Assembly (NCBI GenBank): GCA_036785375.1
Contig: JAWMAR010000272.1
Span: 682,001-746,000, forward strand
DNA: 64,000 nucleotides
From: Leucoraja ocellata
Taxonomy: Eukaryota
Reading direction: 5' to 3'
The position numbers and the translations under genes are program-made. Below the pieces are notes generated by a model. The model was not told the DNA's origin, ran no database searches, and worked only from the letters and a program-made list of their open reading frames with translations. Of this stretch, positions 1,026 to 54,100 are shown piece by piece (position 1 is the stretch's first letter; every line of letters starts with the position of its first letter).

Positions 1026-3399
1026 AGATATATCCCATCCATGAATATAAGAGGGTTTGTTTTTAAGTTTCTTGAAGCTTTTCCCCCAACTAGATTATGT
1101 TTGTTTTTTTATTCAGTATCTTTCTCTCAGGAGTATGATTTAAATAGCTGTTAGAGTGAAATATGGAACAATATATTGGACAATGCTGGAAAAAATGTTG
1201 TTCAGTATTATTAGGCCCATGGGAAAGGTGTAGCTTCCAACATTCTTTAGTAAACCATGTACTGTTGTAAAGATTAGAAACTCGGAAGTCTGGAGCTGTT
1301 TTAACTCACACCATCTGAGCGACAATGGGGAATCCTGGAGTTAAAGGGATGCCAGCAATCTTCCCCTTTGACTTACATTCTTCTCATGTTTCAGAGCTAA
1401 TGATTAGGACACAGATGTATATGTAATGGTGTTCTTTTTCAGATCCTGGCTGCCTTGACTACAATTAACTTAGCAATTCACATTGCAGGCCTAAAGAGAG
1501 CAGTGACTCAATGACTATCAGGTCAAACATGGCACCAACTGGAAGATTATCAGCAAGTTCCATTTATAAGGTTTCTTTGAGCACATGGAAGAGGAAGAGT
1601 ATTGTTCTAGGCCTCAGAAGCAAGTGTTTGCCTTCGCTTCACTCATATTTCACTTCCAATCAATTCCTCCCATGTCGTGACCAGCTCCTGCTTGTCCGAT
1701 TGGCTACTTCCCTAATCTCTTGCTGTCACATTCCCATTCCCACTCCAAAATATTCCATTTGCCTTACTGCTTTAAAATGTATTTTTGTTTAGACCTGTGG
1801 TTTTATGAAAAGCTCTTTGGGTTGCATTCAATTGTATGAAAAGTGCTATACAAATAAAGTTATTAAAGTTATTGTTCCTCTGTTTCCCATTAATTGATAT
1901 ATTTATGCAGGTCACAAAAAGCACTAAAGATGACATGATAATGCCATTGATATCACTCATGTTACTGTATGCCTTTGGGGCTGAGTTTCACCCATCCCCT
2001 GTACAAGCAATGATCAGCTCTTCACATTGCCAGACATATATCCAGATGCATGGACAGCAATAGGAAGCTACAAGATTATATACTAAGCAACTTTGAAATT
2101 CATTTTATAATAAAGCTCAAACTTACAGGGATAATTTCAGAAAAGCTAGAAAGCTCATTGCTCCATTCACACCAGGTTAAATGGAAAAAAGATAACATAA
2201 AGATAAACATTTGTTATGTTCATTACAGCCATGGGGTCATTTAAGCAGTAAATGTGATTTTATAAGGAAAACATTTTAGATATGAGGAAAGGACATGCGT
2301 GAGGGAATGATATTCTTTTGAGAAGCCAAATGTAATATTCTTTTAAGAATTAGACTTAATGACTTCCTTCTGAATTGTATGATTCCAACATTGTAAAGAA
2401 ACGGGAATAATTAGATTCAGATAGGATTTTGTTGCATCCAATAAGTAATTCCATGTATGGTATGAAAGTAATTAATTGGCAGAAGTTTCTTATGAACTTA
2501 CTCGGTTCCACTCAAATGTTTCTAAATTATCAATCAACGTCCATTGAAAATCCTAAATTCCACATGAAAGTGATCTGTCTGTTGTTAATTAAGGAAATCT
2601 AAGATAGCTTTAGATGTTGAGTGGAATGCTTGGCAAATAGAATATTTTGGAAAACAGTAATAACCGCACAAGAAAGGAGAAGCAAGGTACGATATGAGAG
2701 CAATATAGCGAGAAATTGAACAAAAGTTCTTAAGAGTTCCTACAGCCATATAAAATGGAAGACAGCAATAAAAATAACGTTAGTCTTATAATGATATTGG
2801 GGGCTGATCAAGCTGGAAGCCTGACTGGTGATGCCATCCCATGAGGGAGCACCATCCGCAACTGCGGTGGAACCTGTTGCCCTTCACAGTCCTGACAGGT
2901 TTTGACAGCTCGCTGTGTGGGTGCAGATGACACCTGAGACCTGCGTTCATTTTAACTTCCTGCACTGGCTGTGTGAAGTTTGTACATTACCCATTCTTTC
3001 CCATATAATCTAGCCTTAGAACTTAAAGAAGCAGAATGTTTCAAAAACTCCAGTTTCAAACTAAACCAAAATAAAACAAAATAGCCAAGAAATACTATAG
3101 AGTGCACATCCTAGTTTGGATCCTCCCTACCGACTCTGAAATATTCCCTTAGTTCTGAGTATTTTGTATATTTTACAGTTAAATTCTTCTTTTCTCATTC
3201 ACTATCTAGTGACTTTGTAAATAAATATCCCCACTTGCTTCTAGTCTTCATTACTTTCAGAAAGAAAAATCTGATTGTAAAAATGTTGAAATCTTTCAAA
3301 GCAAAAGAAAATAGGCAATCATGTGTTTTGTAAATGAACTGTCCTGATTGATAATTGCACTCAGATTTTTTGTACAAGCATAACAATTTCTGCTTTTAC

Positions 3400-4699
3400 C
3401 TTTTCCCTGAGATTTATGTCTTCGGTTTCTTGGAGATACGTAACCAGCTGAACACCTTTTTGTAGCTTCCATACTTTTCCTGCCAGGCAAAGGTTCGGAG
3501 GACACAGTATCACCAGCTGGCAGGCATGACCTCGAGTCATCGGGAACTGTTTGCTTGGTGCAAAGATCTGAAGACATCGACTCAATTTGAGCATCAAACT
3601 TAGCCATGGATTGGCATGGTGCCTTAACTGAAGTGGAACATGGAATGGGATGCGCTGATAATTTGGCCTTGAGTGCAGTTTTGCACGATGGTGCAGCAGT
3701 AGATCGGGTGGAATCCTTGCGCTGGACTGTGCTTTTTGTATCACGGTTGGACTTCTGGTTGGCCTGATCTTTCCTGTCCTCTGTGGAAGCTTCTGCTGCT
3801 TGAAAGCTGAACCCAAAGTTCAAAGGATTTTGCAGGGCTTCTATATAAGATTCACGATAGCGGCATTTTATCCCTTGTTCTTCAAAGTCTCTGTTTGACC
3901 TGCTTAAGCATGGTGTGCAAGGTTCTGATGCAAACCTAATTGTCCCTCCACATGCCCATGTGCCGTTGACTGGAACCACAGAAGATTCACCTTTCTTCAG
4001 TGGAAGCTGTGCAGTCCTGTTTTCAGAGCATTTATCTTTAGAAAACATCATTAAATCCACATAATCTCCTTCAACATTTTCATTGGAGATTTCAAATTGA
4101 TTTGCTGAGATTATTCCCGATTTCATGGATAGGTGACTTAAACATTTTGCATCTTCTTTTTGGCCCAAGTTAGTCAAAGGATTTTTGATTTTGTTATCTG
4201 AATCTAGCTCAGAAGATCCAACCGAATGAGCCATCTCTATTCCTGTCTGCAAAGTCATCCTAGCGGAACCACAGTTGTTTCCCGTTTCCTGAACAGATGA
4301 TGTTTCGTGCCCAGATGATGGTGCTGCTTTGGTCTTATTTACAAATTCAGGGTTTACTATTTTAGACCAAAGCTCTTTTACAACTCCATTATCAGTGGCA
4401 AGTAGGCAAGTTTGCAATGGTGTTCCTGAACGTTCACTGTTTATTGTTTCCAGCCATTCTGTGGTAAAAATATTAGTGTAGGATACTTCTGGTATTAACT
4501 TCTCTTCCACGCTGCGGAGGTCCCTGCCCAAGCATTTCAACACAATCCGTGCAGACTGCTTCCCAACGGGTACAATTTGGAGGTAGAAATCACCCGGGCG
4601 CAGAAGAAAGATGTTGAATGATGACAACTGCACCACTAACTTCTCGTGGAGGCACAAAGGCCAGCCTTCGTGACGGAACAGGAGGCTTGAATATTCGGC
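3400..4699 (-). CDS. PLEKHG4B: Large internal coding exon (1300 nt) of a PLEKHG4B-like Rho-GEF (PLEKHG4/ARHGEF40/KIAA1755 family); N-terminal conserved domain plus long linker
   Basis: Lies within the 475-aa ORF 3296..4723. Acceptor tttttctttctcag|GCC at 4700/4699 (phase 0); donor AAAG|gtaaaa at 3400/3399 (phase 1, less certain). Translation AEYSSLLFRHEGWPLCLHEKLVVQL...LRPGDFYLQIVPVGKQSARIVLKCL...EWLETIN...PLQTCLL matches the family N-terminal domain. GKQSAR(I/L)VLKCL and YRESY(I/L)EAL(Q/R)NP resemble PLEKHG4B as I recall it; paralog assignment (vs PLEKHG4) is not certain. Confidence 0.9.
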
Positions 4700-4994
4700 C
4701 TGAGAAAGAAAAACATTGAACACTCATTAATAGAAAACTCACTGCAGCAAAATTGCTATAAACAAACAACTTGGGTAGCCACGGAACTACTTAAGCAGAT
4801 TAGTTCTCAGTATGGAGATGGTTATTAAATCCACATTCCCATGGACAGCCAAGTATCCTTTTTTTCCCCGTTCCCTCCATTTGTGATCCTAACCTGTAAA
4901 GTTCTATAGCACCAAATGACACCAAATGCACTGACATTGCTGTATCATATCATTTGATCAAGTGGTATTATATTGAGTCTTTGGATGTTTAGGC

Positions 4995-17171: not shown

Positions 17172-17732
17172 GCCAACAGAGACGCTCACCACCCTGGCCA
17201 CACTCTCATGTTACTTCTGCCATCGGCAAGAAGGTATCAGAACCGGAAAACTGTAAAGTCCAAGTTCAGGAACAACTTCTACCCAACAACCGTCAGGCTA
17301 TTAAACACTACATCACCCAAATAAGCTCCAAACTNNNNNNNNNNNNNNNNNNNNNNNNNNNNNNNNNNNNNNNNNNNNNNNNNNNNNNNNNNNNNNNNNN
17401 NNNNNNNNNNNNNNNNNNNNNNNNNNNNNNNNNNNNNNNNNNNNNNNNNNNNNNNNNNNNNNNNNNNNNNNNNNNNNNNNNNNNNNNNNNNNNNNNNNNN
17501 NNNNNNNNNNNNNNNNNNNNNNNNNNNNNNNNNNNNNNNNNNNNNNNNNNNNNNNNNNNNNNNNNNNNNNNNNNNNNNNNNNNNNNNNNNNNNNNNNNNN
17601 NNNNNNNNNNAGTTCGGAGCTTATTTGGGTGATGTAGTGTTTAATAGCCTGACGGTTGTTGGGTAGAAGTTGTTCCTGATATATATATGCTGCAAGTAAC
17701 AATTTAATTGTTCCGTTTTGGGACATGTGACA
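17172..17732 (+). mobile_element. Rex1/Babar-type LINE 3' fragment spanning an assembly gap
   Basis: HHPGHTLMLLLPSARRYQNRKTVKSKFRNNFYPTTVRLLN before the gap; tail gctgcaagtaacaatttaattgttccg...gacatgtgaca after it. Confidence 0.75.
17335..17610. other. Assembly gap (276 N)
   Basis: Run of n characters. Confidence 1.
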
Positions 17733-18272: not shown

Positions 18273-18980
18273 TAGGGTACAGGTGATAGTTGGTCAGTAT
18301 GGATTTAGTGGGCCGATGGGCCTGTTTCCATGCTGTATCTCTAAACTAAACTAAGAACCTGACGTTGTGATTTCTTCATGATAATAATGGGCACCGATAG
18401 CTTCGTATAATTCTTCACACCAAATTCCAGATAATAGCAACTCTGCAACTAATATATGTTTGAAGAGCTTACATTGGTGAAAATACTTGAATATGCGTTT
18501 GAAAAATAACAAGACAAAGTGCAAGAGAAACTCAGCGGGTTTGTCAGCATCTCTGGAGAACACGGATAGGTGATATTTCGGGATTACCCTTGTTCAGACA
18601 AGGAAGTCAATTTGCATTTGAATATTGGATTCAATAAACTTTTGACTTCAGGCGACCTACATAGTAAAGTAACAATACAATGCCACAAGGAATGATTTTT
18701 CATCTGTGAATCATCTAATCCTGTTAGAGACACGAAGGGCTGATGGCATGCTGTCAGCAGTGGGATGGGCAGGAATCAAGAACAGACAGCCACACAGGGC
18801 TGTGGTTTTGTGCTGGCACCCTTGGTGAATCAGAAAGCTGTGGGTTCAAGTCCTGCTTCAGACAGAGTCACGTAATCTCTGTGCACTCAGTTTAATGCAG
18901 GTTGTACTCATTGAAATGTCTACCAGAAGAAATGTTAAATCAAGTCTATTTATATGTATAAACAGTATAAATTAGATAAG

Positions 18981-19210
18981 GGATGGACACAAATTGCTGG
19001 AGTAACTCAGTGGGACAGGCAGCATCTCTGAAGAGAAGGAATGGGTGACGTTTCAGGTCGACACCCTTCTTCGGATTGAAGAATCTAAAGAAGAGTCTCG
19101 ACCCGAAATGACATCCATTCCTCTCCAGAGATGCTGCCTGTCCAGCTGAGCTTCTCCAGCATTTTGTGCCCATCTTTGATTTAAACCAGCATCTGCAGTT
19201 CCTTCCTGCA
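18981..19210. mobile_element. Palindromic Penelope-derived terminal-repeat element (two inverted arms)
   Basis: gacacaaattgctggagtaactcagtgggacaggcagcatctctg...cccttcttc followed by its imperfect reverse complement gaagagtctcgacccgaaatgacatcc...gatgctgcctgtccagctgag...ccagcattttgtg. Confidence 0.75.
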
Positions 19211-19599
19211 CAATTAGATAAGGAAGTTCTACTTGATGTCATGGATAATATCCATTCCTCAGCCTACCGCATGATCTCATACCTATTACGGGATCTTGCA
19301 GTGCACAAATTAAGTCTTATCTTTCCAGGAACATTTTCTTCAGAAGGACAATTATGTGGTGAAACACATGATGGAGAAGCACAAAGGATAATTTTATCAT
19401 GGTGCTATTGCATGCAACTGACACAATCATAGACTGGAAATTGATTTATAGAATTTTACCTTGTGTGTGTATAATCAAAAATGTGTTGTTGAAATTTTTA
19501 TTGTGCAATAACAGTGGCACGATTCCGAACAGTTCAGTCTGTTCCTGGTTTGACTCAACTTGGAGGCTGGCAAAACAACTGATGTCCAATTAAAATCAA

Positions 19600-20117
19600 A
19601 AGAACCGTAGATGCAAGACATAAAATGACAGGATAGGAAGGAACTGCAGATACCGGTTTACATCGAAGATAGACACAAAATGCTGGAGTAACTCAGCGGG
19701 ACAGGCAACAGAGTTAATCCATCATTTTGTATCTATCTTCAGACATGAAATTATAACTGTTTCTCCTTTCATAGATGTTGCCTAACCTGCTTAGTCATTC
19801 CAGCATTTTGTGCTGGAAGTTCCGGAGTATCTCAGCAGGTCAGGCACTATCTCCAGAAGACATGAATAAGTGATGTTTCAGGTGTTTCATGTGTTGGAAG
19901 GAACTGCAAATGCTGGTTTACACCGAAGATATACTCTAAATGCTGGAATTACTCAGCGGGACAGGCAGCATCTCTGGATAAAAGGAATAGATGACGTTTC
20001 AGGTCAAGACACTTCATCAGGCTGGAGAAAGTTCTCGACCTGAAATATCACCTATTCCTTTTTTCCAGAGATGCTGTCTGACCTGCTGAGTTACTCCAGC
20101 ATTTTGTGACTATCTTA
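19600..20117. mobile_element. Cluster of Penelope-derived terminal repeats, including a second palindromic copy (~19896-20117)
   Basis: Repeated aaggaactgcagat...gacacaaaatgctggagtaactcagcgggacaggcagc units in both orientations. Confidence 0.7.
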
Positions 20118-22061
20118 GGTGATATTTTAGGTCTGGATTCTATGCAATTTCAGGGAGCTTGTGAGAGATCCTTTCATTCTCTTTAAATGACAAATAATGG
20201 CATCAGGGTGGCAATTTTGGTTTAGAACAAGAAGTGGGGAATGTTGAAGCCAGGAGTACTGTACACCAGGATAATGACATGCAGAGCTCCACTTAAATGA
20301 AGTTGAGTCTTACCAATGGGGATCTAGGCAGATAAATAGCCTGGACACTCAATAAATGGAAGATTGAACCCCTTGCTCATTGAGCCAAGCAGACTATTGC
20401 CAAAATCAATGAAAGGGCCTGGAGAAATCATCCCGTCACCCCCACACGAATAAACAGAAATACTGGGATTTAATTTCTGTGGATTTGTGGCTCCAATATT
20501 ACTTTAAGATGAGAGCTCAGCTTCATTAAAGTATTACATTATAGACACAACAAAGTGATTATATGAATCCAGCAGTAAGTTGGCTCAAACTTCAGCTTAT
20601 GGTATTTTAGTTAGTAACAAATGTACATTCTTCAGGCATTGGGTAAAGTATCAATGATAAACTTCATGTGCTCAAGATCAATAGGGTATTCAGCAAAAGC
20701 CCGAGTTAGGCAGTATTTTACAACTTCACCACACTGAAAAGCCTACTGTTGTTCTGGGAGGCATGTTAAAGATTTATTAATATTCCAGCCTACTTTAGTT
20801 GATGTAATGTATTTAATAAAAGGTTTATTTCTTCTGAGTATTGACAAGTTTGTAAAAAATGACTGTTGTTCTTTGATAGCCAGTCTTTCGTTCTTCCACA
20901 GAATGCATTGAATGATGTCAATTTAAATTATTTGATATAGTTTGAATTATTATGGCTGCATTTGAATTGAAAGCATTTCTGAAATAAAGTCAACGGTAAA
21001 CAAAATAATAGCCTTGCTCTCAATCAAATAAGAACCATATGTTCTTCTCTGTTGTGCATTTGTTTACGTACCTCAAAATTTAAATCACTGGTGCTCAAAG
21101 TGGGAACTGTGAGCAAAATGTTACCTCTTAAGGAGCATCTGTTAAAAGTTTTGCTTCGAACATATTCTCCTTACTTTTAAGGAAGGATGTGCATTCATTT
21201 CTAGAGCATCTAATATATCGATATCAATCAGTTAACAGTGGTTTTCCTTAGAAACCCAATGGAGGTATTGGACTAAATCTTGCAAATGGATGCCAACAGT
21301 TTCATGGTGAACTGCTGATGTTTATCCTGGTTAAGGTCCAAGACTTTGGTGGATGCGAATCCAACGTCTCAGGCCTGCTGATAGATTCTTGCCAATAGAC
21401 TTTGCTGCTAGAGTCCACACAGGATCCAGTAATCAGGCATGAACCTGCTGAAGAATCTGCTCACAGATGCTGCACCCATGCCCAGGACCCGCAATTCCAA
21501 GTATTTGTGTGAAAATGTTACATCTGCCAGGAAGGAAGGCAGGGCTCCGAGTTCAATTTATTTTAATCATTTGAGTTGGATGTTAATCTTTAAAGGATAT
21601 TTTTGGAGATGATTGTTCATTTTAGGCAGAATGTTAACAATGTTTATTTTTTCTAATTCTTTAAAAATAAAATGTTGAGTACTTCTCAATGTTAACAACA
21701 TCCAGAAGCATTTCAAAGGCTTGTCATCATTGATAGGCAACATTGCTGGGGTGTGGAAAGATACACCCAATAGCTTTGTGGGAAGATTACTTTATCCATG
21801 TCGACCCAAGAGATTGCAGATGTCTGGAACAATACATCTACCATCACGATACCGCCTGGCCCGCTGAGTTCCTCCAACAGCTTGTTTTCTTTAACCTTAT
21901 CCATGTGATCCTGATACACTACACAAGGCCCTAACATTATACATGCATGGTTCACTGGCTCTTGGATACTGATGGCCAGCAAGTTCAATCTTCTAAACCA
22001 AGTAATTGTGGTAAGAGGGGACAGAAAAGCAACAAGTCCAGCTGGTGAACTTGGGTGGAAC

Positions 22062-22336: not shown

Positions 22337-25313
22337 TCCTTCAGCAACACTAGAGCCTTTATAATGCAGGGAGGGGTACACATGAAACTAACAACATCGG
22401 AATCCAAACCCGAACTATCTTATGAGTGAAGTATATCTGATGCTCATGTTCTAATTGGGTGTAGTCGAACAAACAAAATACCACACTCAGCTGTGGTCAA
22501 ATGAGATACATCTGCAAACTCCAATGAATACAATATTCTGGAATTTATTTATTTATTCATTGACCACACTAAGTTCACAATGTTCGTGCCTGATAGCCCG
22601 CTTCATTGCCACCCCATCTACAACCATTCACTCACCAATGCACAGAAATAACAGTGTGTACCAACTCACCAACACTCCTCAGATAGCACCCTCCAAACGT
22701 ACCAAGGACAAAGCCAATAAACACAAGGGAACATTACCTCCTGGAAGTTGCCTTGTAGCCACGCACCAACTGGTGTTGGAAATGTATGACCCTTCCTTCA
22801 CCATAGCATAGTCAAAATCCTGGAACACCCTCCCTAATAGCACTGTGGTGTACTCACACCTCAAGGATTGCAGTAGTTCAGAAGACAGCTCAACACCACC
22901 TTCTTAAGGGTGATTAAAGATAGACAATTAAGTATTGTCTCAATCTACAAATTCCCTAAATAAATAAAAATTGTTTGAAATATATATGCTGTATTTTTTC
23001 TGAACTGTCACTCAAATTTGGTGTAATTCTATGTCATTTCTTCTTTGCAATTGTATTCTCATATATCAACATCAATTCTGCCAGTGAACAGCATTGACAC
23101 GAGAAATGTACTTGAGGCCAGAACATTTGTTCACACAAGTTGCAACTAGCTTTTTTGATTCACCTTAATAGCTTAAAATCCACTGCCAAATTCCAAACTC
23201 AGCACCATCTACAACACCAGGGGCTCATTTGAGTTTAGAGAGAGGAGAATTAAGACTTTAACACTTAAAAACTGATGCAAAGTTAGGCACGCATCACAAA
23301 CCTTGAAGATAACTAACTGACGGACAAAATGGAGCTAAGTATTTCTCACAGTAGTAATAATAATGTTTTCGAGAGAAATTTTCAAAGGTGAGATTAAAGT
23401 GGAGAGTTTAATATAAAAGAATTGCAGAGCTAAGGGTCTATAACAGCCACTAAAGAAGGGGTGAAGAAAGGTGAAGATACTGTACATCCAGCCAAAATTG
23501 GAGGAATGCCATGATGAGGGAGTATCTTAATGTTTCAGGGGTTATAAAGATCAGAAATAGAGATTTTACTTTTCAATCTTTGAACCATTTATGCATAATT
23601 TCCCCTCAGATGTTTATGTTTCAGTATTTTGGCATGAAACCAATTGCATCAATGCTTTTTTACAGATGCCAACATACAGAACTACGGACCTGCTTCATCG
23701 CTATGATTTCTGTGATTGTCATGCAAATACAATTAAAGAGAAATTATGCCAATCTGGAATTTTTTTCGCACTGATTAAATAATAGTTTAACAATATTCAT
23801 GTCAGTGAATCTAATGCCAGCTGTGCATCATTAATAAATTCCACCCTTTATCTGCATAAATATTTAGAAGATTATCAAACAGATAATATATGGACTTGCA
23901 GCGACATAAATTGAAATGTAACCTTTGTGTTCTATACTGTGGAGTTCTAGTTTGCCTCCGGCCAGTAAAATAGCACTTACAAATGAAAGTCAAAAAAAAA
24001 ATCGTGCTTTAGATTCCAGGATATGTGCAGGTTTGCACAGGATTTTTGGTATTATTTTTATTCAGGTACATTGATAACATTATAATTCCCTTGAAGAAAA
24101 TATGAACTGGCCAGCCAGATCAAACCTTCAATTCCAGTGTATACATTTATATTTCTCATATTTCATTTAACAAATGAAACTGAAATAATATGTACATGAT
24201 CTGCTAGCTTGAGGAATTGCATTCATTGTTACAATGTTCAAGTATTCGACAACAATTCCATTTGAACAAACCAAATTCTTAATGTACTCTTAAGACTGTG
24301 ATAAAGAAGGCTCAAGATACACCAGGAACAGGTTATGTGTTTACCTTTAACAAGAGTTTAAACTTTTAATATGAAGCAAAATATCATCTTGTAGACACAA
24401 TAAATACAGGCAGAAATATGAATGATTGAAGCAATGTTTCTGGCAAGCTTTACCTCATTTGAAAATAACTTGCAAAATACGACTAAATGAAAACAATTAT
24501 ATCATAAAATAATCTTCTAACTCTCTAAAAATGGCATAATAAGAAAAGGAAATACTATACTTACATGAATATCTTTCCTCTAGCGATGTAATTGTGTGTT
24601 TGGCTGTAGTGTCTATACTTTATGGCATTAGCTGATACATGTCTTTTGAATCATAAAAAAATGGCCACACCCCACACCCCACACCCACACAGTCCTGATT
24701 CAGATTAGTAAACATACCTGGTAATATAGCAATTGTACATTGGCTAGCCATGTTAAACGCAATGACACCCTGCAAAGTAGTACTGCCTAGATCTGCTTGC
24801 AATCACTTTGCCTTATTGGGTCAATCCAAAATACGATTGACTTCTCAAATTGTGACAATCAACAGAAATATTGTGAAATGTACACCACATCCATCACTAT
24901 TTGTATAATTCCTAGATTTGCAGCATAGGAACTTCCTCTGATTTTGTGCCATTTTCTACTTCTGCTGAAAGGAGCATTGATTAATGTTCACTCAATAAAA
25001 ATAATCCAGCCATTTTTCCCTAAACAACAAAACATGAAGCCACATAAAGACATAATAACTGAGGAACTTGTCACAGGAGATTTAAATTGGGGAGATATAC
25101 AGAGGTGGGGAGTTTGAAAAAGGGAAATCCAGAATTTAAGACCTTGGTATCTGAGTTAATTAACTAAAAACAAGTACACAAATACTCCATGGGTCAGGCA
25201 GAACCCATAGAGAAATGAACAAATATATCAAGAACTGGTAATGTTCAAGACAAGATTTAAGTTGAAAAGAAGAGAGGAGAATATAAATAAATAAATATTA
25301 ATAATAAATATTA

Positions 25314-25350
25314 TCAGTCTGAAGAAGGGTCTCGACCCGAAACGTCACCC
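25314..25350 (+). ncRNA. Minimal Penelope-type (type I) hammerhead ribozyme motif
   Basis: CUGAAGA (25319-25325), A, stem II GGGUC-UC-GACCC (25327-25338), GAAAC GUC (25339-25346) with palindromic ACGU in place of stem III; sits in a Penelope terminal repeat (25314-25417). Stem I is only ~2 bp. Confidence 0.6.
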
Positions 25351-25419
25351 ATTCCTTATCTCCAGAGATGTTGCCTGTCCCGCTGTGTTACTCCACCACT
25401 TTGTGTCTACCTTCGATTG

Positions 25420-26085
25420 TGGTGAGGCTAGACCACATGGGATCCAGGTGAGCAAGCTAACTGGAGACAGAATTGGCTTCATGGCAGGAAGCAGAAGGTG
25501 CTGGTGGAAGATTGTTGATGGGACTGGAGGCCCGTGACTAGTGGTGTCACATCTGGAAAGCTCAGCCCATTTGTGTATGTCATCTATATCAACAATTGGG
25601 ATGAGAATGTACAAGGCATGATTAGAAAGTTTGAAGATTACACTAAAATAGGTGGTATTGCACATGTATAGATAGTTATCGAGAACCACAGCGGGATTTT
25701 GATCAGCTGGGCAAACGAGCCAAGGAATGGCTACTGGAGTTTAAGTCAAATACGTGCGAGGCGTTGCATTTTGGGAAGTGGAACCAGGACTGGTAGGACT
25801 GAGTGGTGGGACCCTGAGGTGTGTTGTCGAGCAAAGGTATCGAAGAATGCAAGTACATAGTTCCCTGAAAGCCTTGTAGACAGATAAATTGGTGACGAAG
25901 GCTTTTGGCACTGGACTTCATCAGTCAGGAAATTGAGTATAGAATGGGGAACATTATATTACGTTTGCACAACACATTGGTGAGGCCACATTTGAAGTAT
26001 TGCGTTTAGTTATGGTCACTCTGCTATAGAAAAGTTGTCATTTATTTGGAAAGAGTGCAGGGAAGACCTATAAGAATCTTGCTAA
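25420..26085 (+). mobile_element. CR1 LINE ORF2 fragment
   Basis: gtgactagtggtgt..., attagaaagtttgaagattacactaaaataggtgg (ISKFADDTKIGG-like), ttggtgaggccacatttgaagtattgc (LVRPHLEYC). Confidence 0.75.
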
Positions 26086-26395
26086 CCTGAGCACCTCCCC
26101 CTCTTTGCAGTATTTTGATTTCTTTTTTAAATTGTGATGCCCTCTTCACTCATAAAATCTACCATTTAAATCAAACATTTTGTTTCTCGTCAAAGGCCTA
26201 GACTTTGCAGTATGGCACACGCAAAGCAAACTGCTCACCAAGTTCCAGTGACAGCTGGAACAAAGATGTGATATCATTTAAATTCAGAAGAATTCATGGC
26301 ATCTAGCGGTTGTGCTGCCACTAAACTGACTGAACAACTGATCACATGAATCCTCACAGACATGACATCATAAAGGAACAGCATAATTTTTAATA

Positions 26396-26856
26396 TGTAA
26401 GAAGGAACTGCAGATGCTGGTTTAAACTGAAGATAGACACATAAAGCTGGAGTAACTCAGTGGAACAGGCAGCATCTCTGGAGGGAAGGAATGGGTGATG
26501 TTTCGGTCGAGCATGCGACTCCATGCGGCAAGCGCAACCTAACGTGGTCGCTTGAGCCGTATGGCCTCACGGGGCCGGTCCCACTTTGATCGCCGGAGCC
26601 GTATGGAGTTGTGCGGAGCTGGTCCCAACATCGCGCGGGGCTCCTAAAAACTGACCGTATTCAAAAATTCTACACGGCAACGGCCTGCCGGCCCGCAGCC
26701 GCCTCGACGCTGTACGCACGTCTTGACGCCGTACGTCACACACATAGTCATAGAGAGAATATGTAAACTCCACACACACAGCACCCTGCACCAGGATCAA
26801 ACCCAGGTCTCTGGTGTTGTGAGGCAGCAGTTCTACCAGCTGTGCCACTGTGTCAC
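26396..26856. mobile_element. Composite: Penelope terminal repeat (26396-26510), CpG-rich Harbinger-like MITE fragment (~26511-26740), SINE head on minus strand (~26745-26856)
   Basis: gtaagaaggaactgcagatgctgg... unit; ggggccggtcccactt motif related to the gggcctgtcccactt terminus at 30836; caggatcaaacccaggtctctggtgttgtgaggcagcagttctaccagctgtgccac is a reverse SINE head. Confidence 0.55.
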
Positions 26857-27061
26857 TCTGCCTCAATTCTGCACCATAATTTGATTTTGTAGTGTATTGC
26901 ACATTGATTAATAAAATAAGCAGCATTCATGCCTATTTATCTCCTGAGTGAACGAGGCATCTTGGGGTATATTTTTGTAAGAATGCTGCACATAGAAGGA
27001 GAGGCAGGGGTAAGGGTATTATGGAAATTATGTCGGGGCCTGATCAACCCCGGCTGGGTCG

Positions 27062-27135
27062 CCTGGGTGAGAGTGTCTGATGTTGTGAGACCCAAAACAC
27101 CCGATGACATCAGGTCACATCACTGAGGATGCGTC
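27062..27135 (+). ncRNA. Candidate rearranged hammerhead ribozyme, copy 1 (core G12 mutated to A, probably inactive)
   Basis: GAGUGUC| (27071-27077), UGAUGU, GACCC-AAAAC-ACCC (GAAA changed to AAAA), ACAUCA-CUGAGGA (27117-27129), U-GCGUC. Confidence 0.45.
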
Positions 27136-27594
27136 CCAGCGCGTCTAGAAGATGTATATATTTCACACTGAAGTCGGGCTATGCCAGTGGCATATAGGAA
27201 TAGACTGGGTGACAACCAAGAATAGTTTGGTGACTACTGGAGAGATAGTTGACGGTACGGAAAGATGGCACCTGGGACAGGCTGGGTTAGCACCCCAGTC
27301 TGTGCCTTTCGTGAGAAAGACACCCAATAAAGCTACAGAAAGGTCTTATGAATTACCTTGGCTTAAAAATCCATCAGGCGAGAAGAATGCGCGGAGAAGG
27401 AGAAAGAGGTGCAGCGCACAAGCCTTGAACCTGGTGAGACGCAGGAGGAGCCCGGTCAGGACTCACCCCACAGAGCCCAGTCCCTCCACACACTAGAGTC
27501 TCCCAACCCCTGCAGAGTAGTTATTAAGAGGGCTGATCCTTGGGCGGATGCTGCTGGGACGCAAGTCGGGGCCTGATCAGTCCCGGCAGGGTAA

Positions 27595-27668
27595 CCTGGG
27601 CGAGGGTGTCTGATGTTGTGAGACCCGAAACATCCGATGACCCCAGGTCACATCACTGAGGATGCATC
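27595..27668 (+). ncRNA. Candidate rearranged (non-circularly permuted) hammerhead ribozyme with k-turn, copy 2
   Basis: Stem III GGGUGU(27604-09)/ACAUCC(27630-35); cleavage triplet GUC| at 27610; stem I UGAUGU(27611-16)/ACAUCA(27650-55); CUGAGGA 27656-62; CGAAA 27626-30; weak stem II GACCC/GCAUC; k-turn CCUGGG-C-GA / GAU-GA-C-CCCAGG. Confidence 0.55.
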
Positions 27669-28549
27669 CCAGCGCATCTAGAAGATGTATATTTTTCACA
27701 CAGTAATTATAGAAATTGTCCAACCACGTTCAATACAAATTGTATGTTTAGCTTGGAAAAGATAACTTTCAAGCCTATCTATACTATATTTGCTTTAAGG
27801 TTATTACATAACCTTTATATTCCCTTTTTCTAGATTCCTCAGCTAAATCCTAGACAATATCAGGTCTTCCTGATTGAAACACCGATCAATAGAGACCAAT
27901 CAATGTGCTATTTACTATTGTCGCTGCTTGCAGAATTGGTGGGGGGGGTTTCCTGTGCCCTTTAAATTGGACCCTCTTTTGCAGATTGAATGGTACTCGT
28001 TGTGCAAAAAACACTATTTTATTCCTATTGCATGTTTCCACATTATGGGCCACTGTATATCTTCTTTTTCCAATCGGTTTGTAAATTATTTTCACTTACT
28101 TTGCCAGCTCATTATCACACCTAGCTATGTATCATAAACAAATGGAATATGTAACTAATTCATATAAATTGTAAACAGCAGAGGGCCAATGAGTGATCCC
28201 AGCCTATTGACCTGAATTACTCATGCTTTTCTGCTCTGCTGAAAACCAAATTTTCACCCATACCCCTCGAACCCTGACAATGCAATGTAATACCTTTAGA
28301 AAGTCCAGAGATATTACATCTTTTGACTTTCCTCTTATCAACTCTGCAGGCATTATTTGCAAATGCTCTATTAGATTTGTCTAATATCATGTTGTAAACA
28401 CAGCAATACATGCAGCATCTGAGAAGAGAAACAGACCTGCTTCAGTCTGAACACTGTTCCTCAGATCAATTTCTGATTGAGGGTCTTTGACCTGAAACAT
28501 TCCCTATGTTTCCTATGACCTACTCTGTTTACAGCTGCTTCTGTCATTA

Positions 28550-50164: not shown

Positions 50165-50925
50165 TATACCAGAGGATACAGGCGTGGCCAAAAGACTGGT
50201 GTGGAGAATTTCTCTGCATTTGTGAAAAAGTAGCAAAATATTTGGAAATAAACTTTAAATAGAATCAAGTCTCTACATAGAATGCCTCAGTGGCTCAGCA
50301 GATAGTACTGCAGGGAAATTGGTTCAATCCTAACCTCTGGTGGTGTAGATTCGGAATGTATACGTTCTTTCTGTGCATGAGTGGTTTCCTCCAGATGTTC
50401 CAATTTCCTCCCTCATCCCAAAAATGTGCAGGTTGTTGTATTAATTGGCCACTGTGTAGGTGAGTGATTGAATCTGGGGGTAGTTGATGAGACAGTGGGA
50501 AGAATACAATGGGATTAAGTATGATGGGTGTAAATGAGTAGTTGAGTTGGTTGGTGGGCTGAGGCCCAATTTCCGGATATTTTTCTGACACTATGATTCA
50601 TAATTCCAGTGATCAGAGTTTGATCTCCTGTTAATATAGAATATGATGGTCACCTGGTTTCCACAGCATCTCAAAGACAAGTTGGTATGTAAATTGGCTT
50701 CTGCAAGTTAACCCTGGAGTAGGTGGATAGTAGGATCATCAGGGGAAACCTCAGGACACCATCTCCCACCATCTAGTTATCTGTGAACCCCATAGTATTA
50801 ATGCTGGAATTTGAGAATAGTAATACTGTTGATTATCGAGGAGAAATGGGTGGACATTTTATTCACACCATCTGTAAGGTGTGGATTAATCAATCCGAAG
50901 CAGATGTCCAAACCTTCAGCATATG

Positions 50926-51102
50926 CATAGACACAAAATGCTGGAGTAACTCAGCGGGTCAGGGAGCATTTCTCGTGAGAATGGATAGGTGACGTTTCAG
51001 GTCGGGACCCTTCTTCAGACACAGCCCGAAATGTCACATATCCATTTTCACGAGAGATGCTCCCTGACCCACTGAATTACTGCAGCATTTTGTGTCTATC
51101 TT
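50926..51102. mobile_element. Palindromic Penelope-derived terminal-repeat element
   Basis: atagacacaaaatgctggagtaactcagcgggtcagggagcatttctcgtgagaatggata...tatccattttcacgagagatgctccctgacccactgaattactgcagcattttgtgtctat; the minus strand holds CUGAAGA-A-GGGUC-CC-GACCU-GAAAC-GUC. Confidence 0.8.
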
Positions 51103-54100
51103 TGGGATAAAGATCTTTGGTATACAGTTCTTTTTTTTTATTACACTTCAGCATATAGCATGGTTTTCATCATTCACTGATGTAAGACAGTATTTGCTTT
51201 TGTTTCTCAGCTAGGTAAGTAGTGATTAGCCACATCCTTACAATATATTCAGAGATAAACTATTTTCAATGCTTCCTTTTTTTCACCCATTTTTTCTTTA
51301 ATTCTACAATTCATTCTAAATAGTCTGGATTTTGTGGCAGGAGCTCAGTATTTCATCTATTATTCCTTGAACCTTTAGAAAATATCCATGTTGGCAAACT
51401 ATTTTTATGCGGCCTCTGCTCTACCAAAGTGAAATGAAATTAATTCCGTTCTGCTTGAGAGTCTCTGTCATCCTCCACACCAAGTAACTGCAAGTTATTT
51501 ACAACTGATACCAGCCACACCTCACCCCACCACCATTTGCAATGAGCCAGAGGCAAGGTTGGGAGCCATCAGCGTCAGGAAGAACGGTCCAGACATGGTT
51601 GTAGCCATGGTGACTGATGGACAACAACTAGGCATCTTTAAATCTGTTGTTCAATCACAGATTCTGTGATGAAACAGAAACATTCCTCAAAAACTGCAAG
51701 CATTCCACTGTAGAGGCACCTGAGCAGTTTTACTCATCAACTGAGAAAGGATTGTTGTAAAAGCAGAGCAGCTTCAAATCCCAAACCATGTCTGGAATGG
51801 ATAGTACCTGTCAGTAAACAAATCATTTGAAAATCCTATATATTGCTCATCTATAACGCTGAAGCAATGTTTCCAAAGACATTTGGAGAGTAGAACTTCT
51901 AGCTAGAGGCCTTTTCCCTCCTCTTTCAGCCTCTACTGGTAATGCAGTCATAGAGCCATGCAGCACAGAAACATGCCCTTTGGCCCAATTCATTCATGCT
52001 GAACAAAATATCCTATCTAAGCTAGTCCCATTTGCTTGTGTTTGGCCCATATCTATCTAAACCTTTCCCATCCATGTAGTTGTTCAAGTGTCTTTTAAAT
52101 GCTATTATAAGGCCTACCCCAACCACTTCCTCTGGCACTTGTTCCTTATACTTGAAAGCCAACACGTTCCAATACGCCAAAGCCTGTGGGCTCTCCGCTC
52201 CACCTGCCTTCAGCATTGAGGCCCAGCAGGCATCAGAGGTTCAAATGTATGGTTAATGATACCTCAACATTTTGAAACATCAGACAGACTTTGAGACTCA
52301 GAATCCTGGCAAGTGATGCCAGCACTCAACTCTTGGAGTAAACGCAGTGTGTTTCCACAAAATGGATTTCCACACTTGGGTTCAGTACAGAATCAACCTA
52401 TTGAAAGTTTCACTTGTGAAAGGTTAGATTGAACTGTGTAGGATGAGAATCACGGGGAACACCAGTTGGACAAAGACCTACAAGAATTGAAACAGGAGGA
52501 ACATTTATCATGGAAACTTACTGATCTAAATTCTGTCTCCTTGCATCTGAACGTATCCTGGAGCTTTGGAGTGATACTCCAGAAACATGAATTTTAATCC
52601 AATCCCATGATCTGGGAATATAAATTCAATATTATTTATCCAGAATAAAAATCTGTTTTCCATAATTGTAACCATGAAACTACCAGATTGTAAAAATAAA
52701 ACAATTGTTTTGGTAAGCTCCTTTAAGAAGGAAGTCTAGTATTTTTACCTACTTATGATTCAAGGCACAGAACAATGTAATTCACTTTTAAATCAAATGA
52801 CAAAAAACTATTTGGTTCAAAGGCAAAAGGGAATGGACAACAAACACAAAGCTGGCTAATGATGTCGCCTCCCAATGAATGAATGAATGAAACAAAAATT
52901 AAAAAGTTGAACTGGCAAGGATTCGCCCATATAGCACCTATGATAAAGCAGGGCAGCTGGAGACAATAATATCTAGATCAAAGTTTAAGAGTGATTATTG
53001 ACATAGGTTGAAAACTCAGGATTTGAATAAAGAACCTGCAGGATATGACACATTCAGAAAAGGCAGAGATGATAAAAGGGACAGACTCAGTACCAATAAA
53101 AGGAATCCATCTGAATCCAGTCATGAAAAAGATTTTATAAAAGGTCAATTAAAATAATCTGCAGGCACTCTAATAAAGGAAGCAAGCAGAGAAAGAAAAT
53201 GCAAATCCCATGATTATGACACCAGAATTAGTTGGCATGAAAAGGTAGGCAATGAGGCAGAAAGAGTGCACAGGACTACTTCCTAACCAAATAGATTTTA
53301 AAAAGTCAACAAAGAATTTACACAGAGATTAGAAATAAAAGCACAGGAGTAGTTAAGTAACAGAGACCACAATATCATTTGATTTAATAAGTGAGAAGGA
53401 CAAGTATGATGAAGACCAAAGTATTGAATTGGAGAAAGGACAATTTGAGAACTTGGGAAAATAAAATGTACAAAAGTATTGGCAAACGATTTCAAACAGC
53501 AGGGTAAATCTGACCCTTTTGATCTGTCCAGGAAAAATATATTCAATGAATAAACAAGAATAAATTAAACTGTAATGAGACTCCATGAATAAACAATGAC
53601 ATAAGAAAAAGATTGAATGTTTCAAAGAAGCTTATGCTAAGTGTACTAACTGTGTTTGGATGAGTATGTTAAAAGAACTAAATTAGGAAATAAATCGAAA
53701 TACAACTGAAAGGGCAAGAGGAACTATGAACATAAGGAATATAACACAAAATAGTAACACAATATTTCATGTTTATATAAATGTAAATGGATTAGTCACG
53801 GCAGGAGTAAAGTTATTAGCAAATGGTTCCAATGTAATCATTGGCTGAGAGGCAAGAAACTTTTGGATCCATATTTAACAAGAGGTCAGATAAGCGAGAC
53901 ATGATAGTATTAGATGAGATTATCAATAATATACATAGAATATAAAGCAGAGACAGGCCTTTTGGCCCATAATGTCTGTGCTGAACATAATGCCAAGATA
54001 AACTAATCCCTCCCACTTGTTCATGATCCATATATCACCATTCCCTGCATATGCATGTGTTATCTAAACGCCTTTTCAACGTCACTATTGTAATTGCCTC

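Follow-up and report, generated by a model that had tools for sequence, protein, structure and literature searches.

The window, i.e. the whole 64,000-nt stretch of Leucoraja ocellata DNA that was analysed, is repeat-rich eukaryotic DNA of ~40% G+C and contains, on its forward strand, an internally deleted 670-nt insertion derived from a HERO element. A motif made of three hammerhead blocks (S, G and C) occurs twice in this insertion, within direct terminal repeats of 137 nt (copy 1 upstream, copy 2 downstream; Table 1). The two copies are identical at 123/137 positions, 5 of the 14 differences being of the CpG type, and copy 1 directly abuts the HERO leader; a blastn search within the window revealed no third copy. 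Each repeat starts with a G+C-rich predicted hairpin over the HERO stop codon (27032-27052 and 27565-27586). A target-site duplication as good as the one observed was reached by 18/200,000 random flank pairs and, for the same 14-mer, by 1/6,390 other bins. Because this one duplication flanks the whole 670 nt, the locus is best read as a single insertion, 1.26 units long, the cDNA of which passed over the cut site twice (two independent adjacent HERO insertions were ruled out, as the single duplication encloses both repeats). The arrangement of the copies as terminal repeats of one insertion, a point missed by an earlier, sequence-only reading of this DNA, is the main clue to the mechanism.

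Table 1. Features of the HERO-derived insertion and of the hammerhead motif in copy 2 (window coordinates)
Feature	Position	Strand	Evidence or remark
Left target-site duplication	27018..27031	+	12/14 identical to 27706-27719
5' terminal repeat (copy 1): last ORF codons and whole 3' UTR, complete S-G-C motif	27032..27168	+	
HERO 5' leader and broken ORF start	27169..27366	+	protein similarity
N-terminal remnant of HERO ORF	27367..27522	+	67% identity to P0002 residues 27-74
Last 17 HERO ORF codons and stop, fused in frame to the N-terminal remnant	27523..27576	+	82% identity to P0002 residues 1065-1080
3' terminal repeat (copy 2), true 3' end of element	27565..27701	+	repeat comparison
Closing helix, 5' strand (partner 27668-27673)	27586..27591	+	6/6 pairs in copy 1, 5/6 in copy 2
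k-turn, non-bulged strand: NC helix 5' strand, 3n = C, G2n, A1n	27595..27603	+	
Block S: stem III 5' strand, cleavage triplet, stem I 5' strand	27604..27616	+	descriptor match
Stem I to stem II linker, 5 nt	27617..27621	+	
Block G: stem II 5' strand, G12-A13-A14, stem III 3' strand	27622..27635	+	descriptor match
k-turn, bulged strand: 3-nt loop, G1b, A2b, 3b = C; NC helix 3' strand; 2-nt link to stem I	27636..27649	+	
Block C: stem I 3' strand, CUGAGGA, extra U, stem II 3' strand	27650..27668	+	Y.C mismatch 10.2-11.2
Terminal hairpin	27674..27688	+	6/6 pairs in both copies
Right target-site duplication	27706..27719	+	12/14 identical to 27018-27031

The open frame at 27367-27576 matches RT-bearing fish proteins (9 matches among 25 candidates). 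Since the remnants in the window correspond to the two ends of P0002 (1080 aa), ~990 codons, comprising RT and endonuclease, have been deleted. Translation of 27193-27342 gives a 50% match to the tail of a Labeo rohita gene model (P0107), and GLKIHQAR, at ~27360-27385, is common to the N-termini of P0001, P0002 and P0004. P0002 carries RVT_1, and the C-terminal alignment (A2) contains C-x2-C...H-x4-C and RPD...E...K, which we take to be a CCHC knuckle and a restriction-like endonuclease, respectively. Counted by eye against the HEROTn sequence from PMC7650587 (partial text), P0002 is identical in 52/67 RT residues. A single ORF with RT, CCHC knuckle and restriction-like endonuclease, close to a named HERO, places the parent in the HERO clade, one of the restriction-like-endonuclease non-LTR clades (PMC4640811, partial text). 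We found neither a Penelope-type protein nor a type I/III hammerhead: the parent protein is of the HERO type and the block order is SGC. Because the remnants match HERO proteins, the motif lies in the HERO 3' UTR (stop codon at 27574-27576, predicted cut 34 nt past it and 91 nt before the 3' end), and the HERO link proposed in the sequence-only reading was borne out by both ends of an RT protein. Plasmid and phage collections yielded no match, a protein search with the minus-strand translation no candidate, and a PDB sequence search with the C-terminal alignment one non-significant match.

In copy 2, the three blocks lie at 27595-27668 (+) in the 5'-to-3' order S-G-C. Stem III (27604-27609/27630-27635) and stem I (27611-27616/27650-27655) each form 6/6 pairs, H17 is C27610, after which the cut is predicted, C11.1-GAA-A15.1 occupies 27626-27630, and CUGAGGA (27656-27662) is followed by an extra U (27663) and G10.1 (27664). 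The hammerhead core (CUGAnGA, GAAA, NUH, G10.1-C11.1) is complete in copy 2, as it is in L005, a distant relative described below, while copy 1 fails at G12. The reversed strand order, stem III, the perfect stem I and the 5-nt linker between stems I and II that the sequence-only reading had described were all recovered in copy 2. The weak stem II that it had pointed out is real as regards the mismatch, but the strand that it quoted is that of copy 1, located 533 nt upstream, in which stem II forms 4/5 pairs; copy 2 forms 3/5. The extra U after A9, which it had counted as a weakness, belongs to the published SGC search pattern. As for copy 1, for which the cut is predicted after 27077, the G12A change that had been reported is present at 27094, so that this copy matches our SGC descriptor only when G12 is relaxed and is predicted to be inactive today; moreover, its stem III contains an A.C mismatch and its k-turn helix is damaged. 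Both local copies are decayed relics and are probably dead or weak.

The SGC descriptor matched once in the 64 kb, both strands included, the match being copy 2; it matched 0/150 dinucleotide shuffles of the window and 0/20,000 shuffles of 27577-27701. Similarly, a descriptor allowing any block order with 6+6-bp stems matched the window at the copy 2 site only and 0/200 shuffles. A loose descriptor (any block order, 3+3-bp stems) found matches in 24/200 shuffles, and the loose hammerhead-like CGS match that lies within a dispersed repeat at 25319-25389 (+) is for this reason probably due to chance. Note that the strict SGC and the loose descriptors are both post hoc, having been composed once the sequence was known. 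Rfam at gathering thresholds returned nothing relevant for the window and, at E values up to 10, only weak unrelated matches around the motif and in L005. The hammerhead helices did not co-occur in minimum-energy folds, which were computed with a program that cannot model pseudoknots. Sequence comparison supports the motif as a real feature and bears out the reversed order of its blocks, its k-turn and its link to HERO.

The k-turn is formed by a 3-nt bulge (27636-27638), by G-A at 27639-27640 opposite G-A at 27602-27603, and by a helix (27595-27600/27642-27647) with 6/6 pairs. All the standard elements (C helix, 3-nt bulge, G1b.A1n, A2b.G2n and NC helix), which the sequence-only reading had recognized, are indeed found in the sequence of copy 2, and k-turn folding is predicted. 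In the family (see below), G1b is present in 54/62 and A2b in 60/62 proteins, G2n being not resolvable from proteins, and the loop codon is the most variable, with 14 different residues (a result that the parsing partly favours). Since a 3b = C with 3n = C or U is associated with folding in metal ions alone (the 3b.3n rule; PMC4382518, partial text) and 3b is C in the window, the k-turn should fold in metal ions alone. Standard k-turns described in this same partial text have the same 3-nt bulge, tandem G.A/A.G and flanking helices; here they are joined to a hammerhead stem III. Our literature search for a natural k-turn on a hammerhead stem III retrieved only a synthetic-switch paper. Located at the far end of stem III, the k-turn would turn the chain back to stem I, as the reversed strand order requires.

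Two other helices flank the motif. The closing helix may act as a stem I-II 'interaction' helix, albeit one that is connected differently from the published interaction I. The 5' arm of the terminal hairpin can instead pair with G8-A9-U-G10.1 (27661-27666), thereby blocking the core, and the hairpin might thus be a switch of the hammerhead core. Such a competing hairpin had been noticed before; it exists (6/6 pairs in copy 1, 5/6 in copy 2), but the arms then quoted were mixed from the two copies. For the terminal hairpin, compatible residue patterns are found in 11/75 proteins.

The order S-G-C is that of the published 'type-SGC' hammerhead permutation (Eckert et al. 2023, PMC10085705), so that the caution about known rearranged hammerheads voiced in the sequence-only reading was justified. 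Type-SGC ribozymes have been published from viroid-like RNAs in metatranscriptomes. They self-cleave at rates of 0.007-0.19 per min, and single SGC motifs cut in cis; no such RNA was reported from the genomes of known organisms except one weak GCS candidate (PMC10085705). Because the S-G-C order is already published, what is new here is the host element and the k-turn, not the topology. The window and the HRIMA-1/SGC variants (PMC10085705) have in common the S-G-C order, a full core, the extra U after A9 and a short stem I-II linker, and L005 has a candidate for the helix by which published SGC motifs tie the stem III-I linker to nucleotides lying 3' of stem II. By contrast, the published motifs come from metatranscriptomes and belong to no known organism, whereas the present one lies in a DNA genome, in the 3' UTR of a LINE; the fish-type form also differs from them by the Y.C mismatch in stem II and by bearing a k-turn on its stem III (the supplement of PMC10085705 contains 'k-turn' and 'kink' 0 times). 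The window stem I (27611-27616/27650-27655) contains AUGU/ACAU, as does the invariant HRIMA-1 stem I, but two pairs further from the core, which may be a coincidence.

Our implementation of the published RNAMotif SGC pattern, with N7 fixed or free, was matched neither by window positions 27001-27720 nor by L005; inspection shows that it is stem II of the window that departs from the pattern and, in L005, the lengths of stems and linkers. This would explain why the published RefSeq search missed both motifs. Since pattern and Rfam searches miss the motif, similar motifs may be overlooked elsewhere. In the papers covered by our literature search, neither a HERO hammerhead nor a genomic type-SGC motif was described, although Repbase Reports and subscription papers might mention ribozymes or the terminal structure of HERO; 'hammerhead' occurs 0 times in the accessible parts of PMC13580325 and PMC13708176, and 'permut' 0 times in PMC10162972. 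Judged by sequence, the HERO motif represents a rare ribozyme topology that was already known, in a variant and in a biological home that are both new.

Variation within the family was deduced from spurious or frameshifted proteins that read through the 3' UTR, bases being derived from residues. A profile of the two window translations retrieved 73 proteins, which, with two others, gave 75; 62 were parsed and 13 dropped. HERO C-terminal sequence is also present in 23 of the 72 new read-through proteins. Because the rows are related and were picked by likeness to the window, the counts overstate independence, and each covariation may represent one or two events.

At the stem I pair 27613-27653, A with a pyrimidine was found 33 times, U with a purine 6 times and a mismatch once. 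At the stem I pair 27616-27650, the fully resolved T/A rows comprise 11 U-A, 4 A-U and no single change, while 4 further rows cannot pair. At the k-turn pair 27600-27642, 39 proteins have G-C, 8 a double change and 7 a single one, most doubles being A-U-compatible and incompletely resolved. Four pairs were tested for the rank of the predicted partner among 82 positions: it came first for these three and third for 27597-27645. The C-G/U-A change at the latter was rejected as covariation, since its bases lie in CpG sites of a palindrome and its partner ranks only third. The covariation by which the sequence-only reading had proposed to check the fold is present, as deduced from proteins, in stem I and in the k-turn; in stem III, none was seen among fish-type proteins. 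Covariation of two stem I pairs and one k-turn pair supports selection on the fold.

At H17, the 62 parsed proteins have C (37), A (23) or U (2); G12 is retained in 53 and replaced by A in 9, and A13 is present in 61; 3 of the 13 dropped rows imply G at the cut site. Decay may explain the A at G12 and the implied G at the cut site. The family varies at H17 (C, A, U) and N7, two positions at which the hammerhead is known to tolerate change. The conservation of CUGAnGA in 18 shifted-frame proteins was not counted because the parsing rule required it. The stem II 10.2-11.2 positions cannot pair in 17/18 resolvable proteins, and the stem I-II linker is 2 nt long in 15/62 parsed proteins. As a side observation, in P0188 the translation of the HERO 3' motif is fused to another protein, which carries what is presumably a caspase-like active-site motif.

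L005 provides an independent comparative line of support for selection on the fold, as it was selected on protein alone. A scan of GTDB contigs gave 46 pattern matches, which reduced to 5 loci; 4 of them end inside the ORF and are uninformative, and L005 is the only one with a 3' UTR. The other four, L001-L004, are pieces of HERO-like ORFs on short contigs of bacterial assemblies (Thalassococcus, Alcanivorax, a Flavobacteriaceae MAG), and L001-L003 (52-62% identity) look like contamination by animal DNA. L005 itself is a 1,429-nt contig in a Planctomycetota MAG, probably a eukaryotic contamination of this bacterial MAG, and comprises the end of an ORF, a 3' UTR of ~450 nt and a tail of three-base repeats (element end at 851-1429). 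Against the HERO C-terminal alignment it shows 31% identity with a profile probability of 99.4%, a comparison by which its placement in the HERO clade is tentative.

In the 3' UTR of L005, positions 1190-1243 make up an SGC core whose stems measure 4, 3 and 3 bp (stem I having 3) and whose stem I-II linker is 2 nt long. Compared with the window, 4 of its 10 pairs are changed on both sides (all three stem I pairs and the fourth stem III pair) and 0/10 are broken; its 3-bp stem II is free of mismatch. A candidate 9-bp helix (1217-1225/1270-1278) would connect the stem III-I linker to sequence past stem II, like the published interaction helix. L005, a single example with one motif copy in the contig, has a hairpin but no k-turn. 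The SGC arrangement occurred by chance on the + strand in 37/20,000 shuffles of positions 1-1305, and any order on either strand in 217.

From these comparisons, it is highly probable that the HERO 3' UTR harbors a type-SGC hammerhead and that intact family copies self-cleave at the NUH site. Given a ribozyme, we lean slightly towards a role in which unit-length RNA is cut out of more-than-unit copies and re-ligated into a circle. In the route that we infer, a HERO copy with its 3' UTR repeated at the 5' end would be transcribed by read-through; cleavage by the two ribozymes would free a unit-length RNA (533 nt here) with 5'-OH and 2',3'-cyclic-phosphate ends; ligation of these ends would yield a circle, inside which the HERO protein would begin target-primed reverse transcription at the element 3' end; and copying for more than one round would regenerate two full ribozymes. 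Such a circle model (cut at both repeats, ligate, copy more than one round) has been proposed for Penelope elements (PMC4209133; PMC6765202; partial texts). The circle route is plausible, if unproven, as the simplest account that also gives two complete ribozymes per insertion.

The terminal-repeat architecture is represented by one DNA example, that of the window, and by two gene models, P0107 and P0200, in which HERO leader or N-terminal sequence follows the 3' motif; in two others, P0140 and P0141, the N-terminus is joined to the 3' motif as in the window derivative (all these gene models may be spliced). The 91 nt that follow the 3' cut site are retained in genomic copies. Since a ribozyme cutting that far short of the 3' end would be expected to ruin a linear template, HERO must either re-ligate its RNA or silence its ribozyme. 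Both solutions would be novel in the R2 superfamily, now under development for gene insertion.

An alternative that we consider unlikely, yet the strongest competitor of the circle, is that a working ribozyme serves in 5' processing or translation only, the upstream repeat being the product of a template jump or of a tandem transcript. The upstream ribozyme would then free the RNA from a host co-transcript, like the HDV-like ribozyme of R2, while the competing hairpin or the HERO protein would keep the 3' copy inactive. Such a hairpin is present, genomic copies retain the 91 nt past the 3' cut, and a template jump, the R2 enzyme being reportedly capable of end-to-end jumping, would yield the same terminal-repeat picture as a circle. 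Moreover, 5' ribozymes serve in release and translation of R2 and of other elements (PMC6765202, partial text), and self-cleavage alone can drive cap-independent translation (PMC13725137, partial text). However, the 5' repeat reaches 46 nt upstream of its own cut site, which indicates that the template was not cut at its 5' end, and a 5'-cut linear template would be expected to lose the upstream ribozyme at each round.

It is improbable that the motif is a structured 3' UTR, such as a binding site of the HERO protein, that merely resembles a hammerhead, or a vestige devoid of cleavage activity. The conserved stem II mismatch and the damage to the local copies would fit this reading; furthermore, covariation supports helices rather than catalysis, and the block C counts are partly built into the parsing rule. 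Nevertheless, L005 keeps every core nucleotide while its stems turn over, and the variation seen in the family falls at the free positions H17 and N7. Less probable still is that the blocks act mainly between two repeats or two RNAs as an ordinary type II/III or dimeric hammerhead, as with the minimal Penelope hammerheads: by sequence, two copies on one transcript do give the standard orders S1-C1-G2 and G1-S2-C2, and dimeric action has been described for Penelope motifs (PMC4209133, partial text), but single SGC motifs cleave in cis (PMC10085705), all three accessory helices (that of the k-turn, the closing helix and the candidate interaction helix of L005) form locally, and L005 has one copy in its contig.

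Penelope-like elements with pseudo-LTR hammerheads and non-LTR retrozymes (PMC4209133; bioRxiv 10.64898/2026.07.22.740005; partial texts) have type I, often dimeric, ribozymes and belong to the Penelope class; HERO differs from them in that the protein of the parent element combines an RT with a restriction-like endonuclease at its C-terminus. R2 and SIDEs (PMC6765202, partial text) resemble HERO in the endonuclease superfamily, in a self-cleaving RNA inside the element (cleavage being predicted in the case of HERO) and in internally deleted non-autonomous copies. The R2 ribozyme is, however, HDV-like, in the 5' UTR of an element with an rDNA target, as described in the same partial text, whereas HERO has a hammerhead in the 3' UTR and terminal repeat, and no rDNA target.

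More broadly, we tentatively propose, as a possibility that falls somewhat short of our preferred role, a clade-wide reversed hammerhead in HERO and related restriction-like-endonuclease LINEs, with replication through ribozyme-made RNA circles bearing LTR-like terminal repeats. If so, an enzyme of the R2 superfamily would prime inside a circular template, and the motif would be the first cellular, vertebrate home of a non-circularly permuted ribozyme, braced by a k-turn in one lineage. Type-SGC hammerheads have so far had no known host or biology; a family in fish genomes would supply both, along with many natural variants. The k-turn would be a concrete, testable answer to how the far end of stem III reconnects to the stem I-II region, a question raised in PMC10085705.

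Elsewhere in the window, a 475-codon stop-to-stop frame at 3296-4723 (-) has no Pfam match. An assembly gap of Ns at 17335-17610 explains a 207-nt perfect inverted repeat and probably also the two open frames listed there. Finally, a dispersed repeat family is present in both orientations at 18500-20120, 25310-26530, 50920-51110 and elsewhere, several times as close inverted pairs (e.g. 19921-20121 and 50927-51099).
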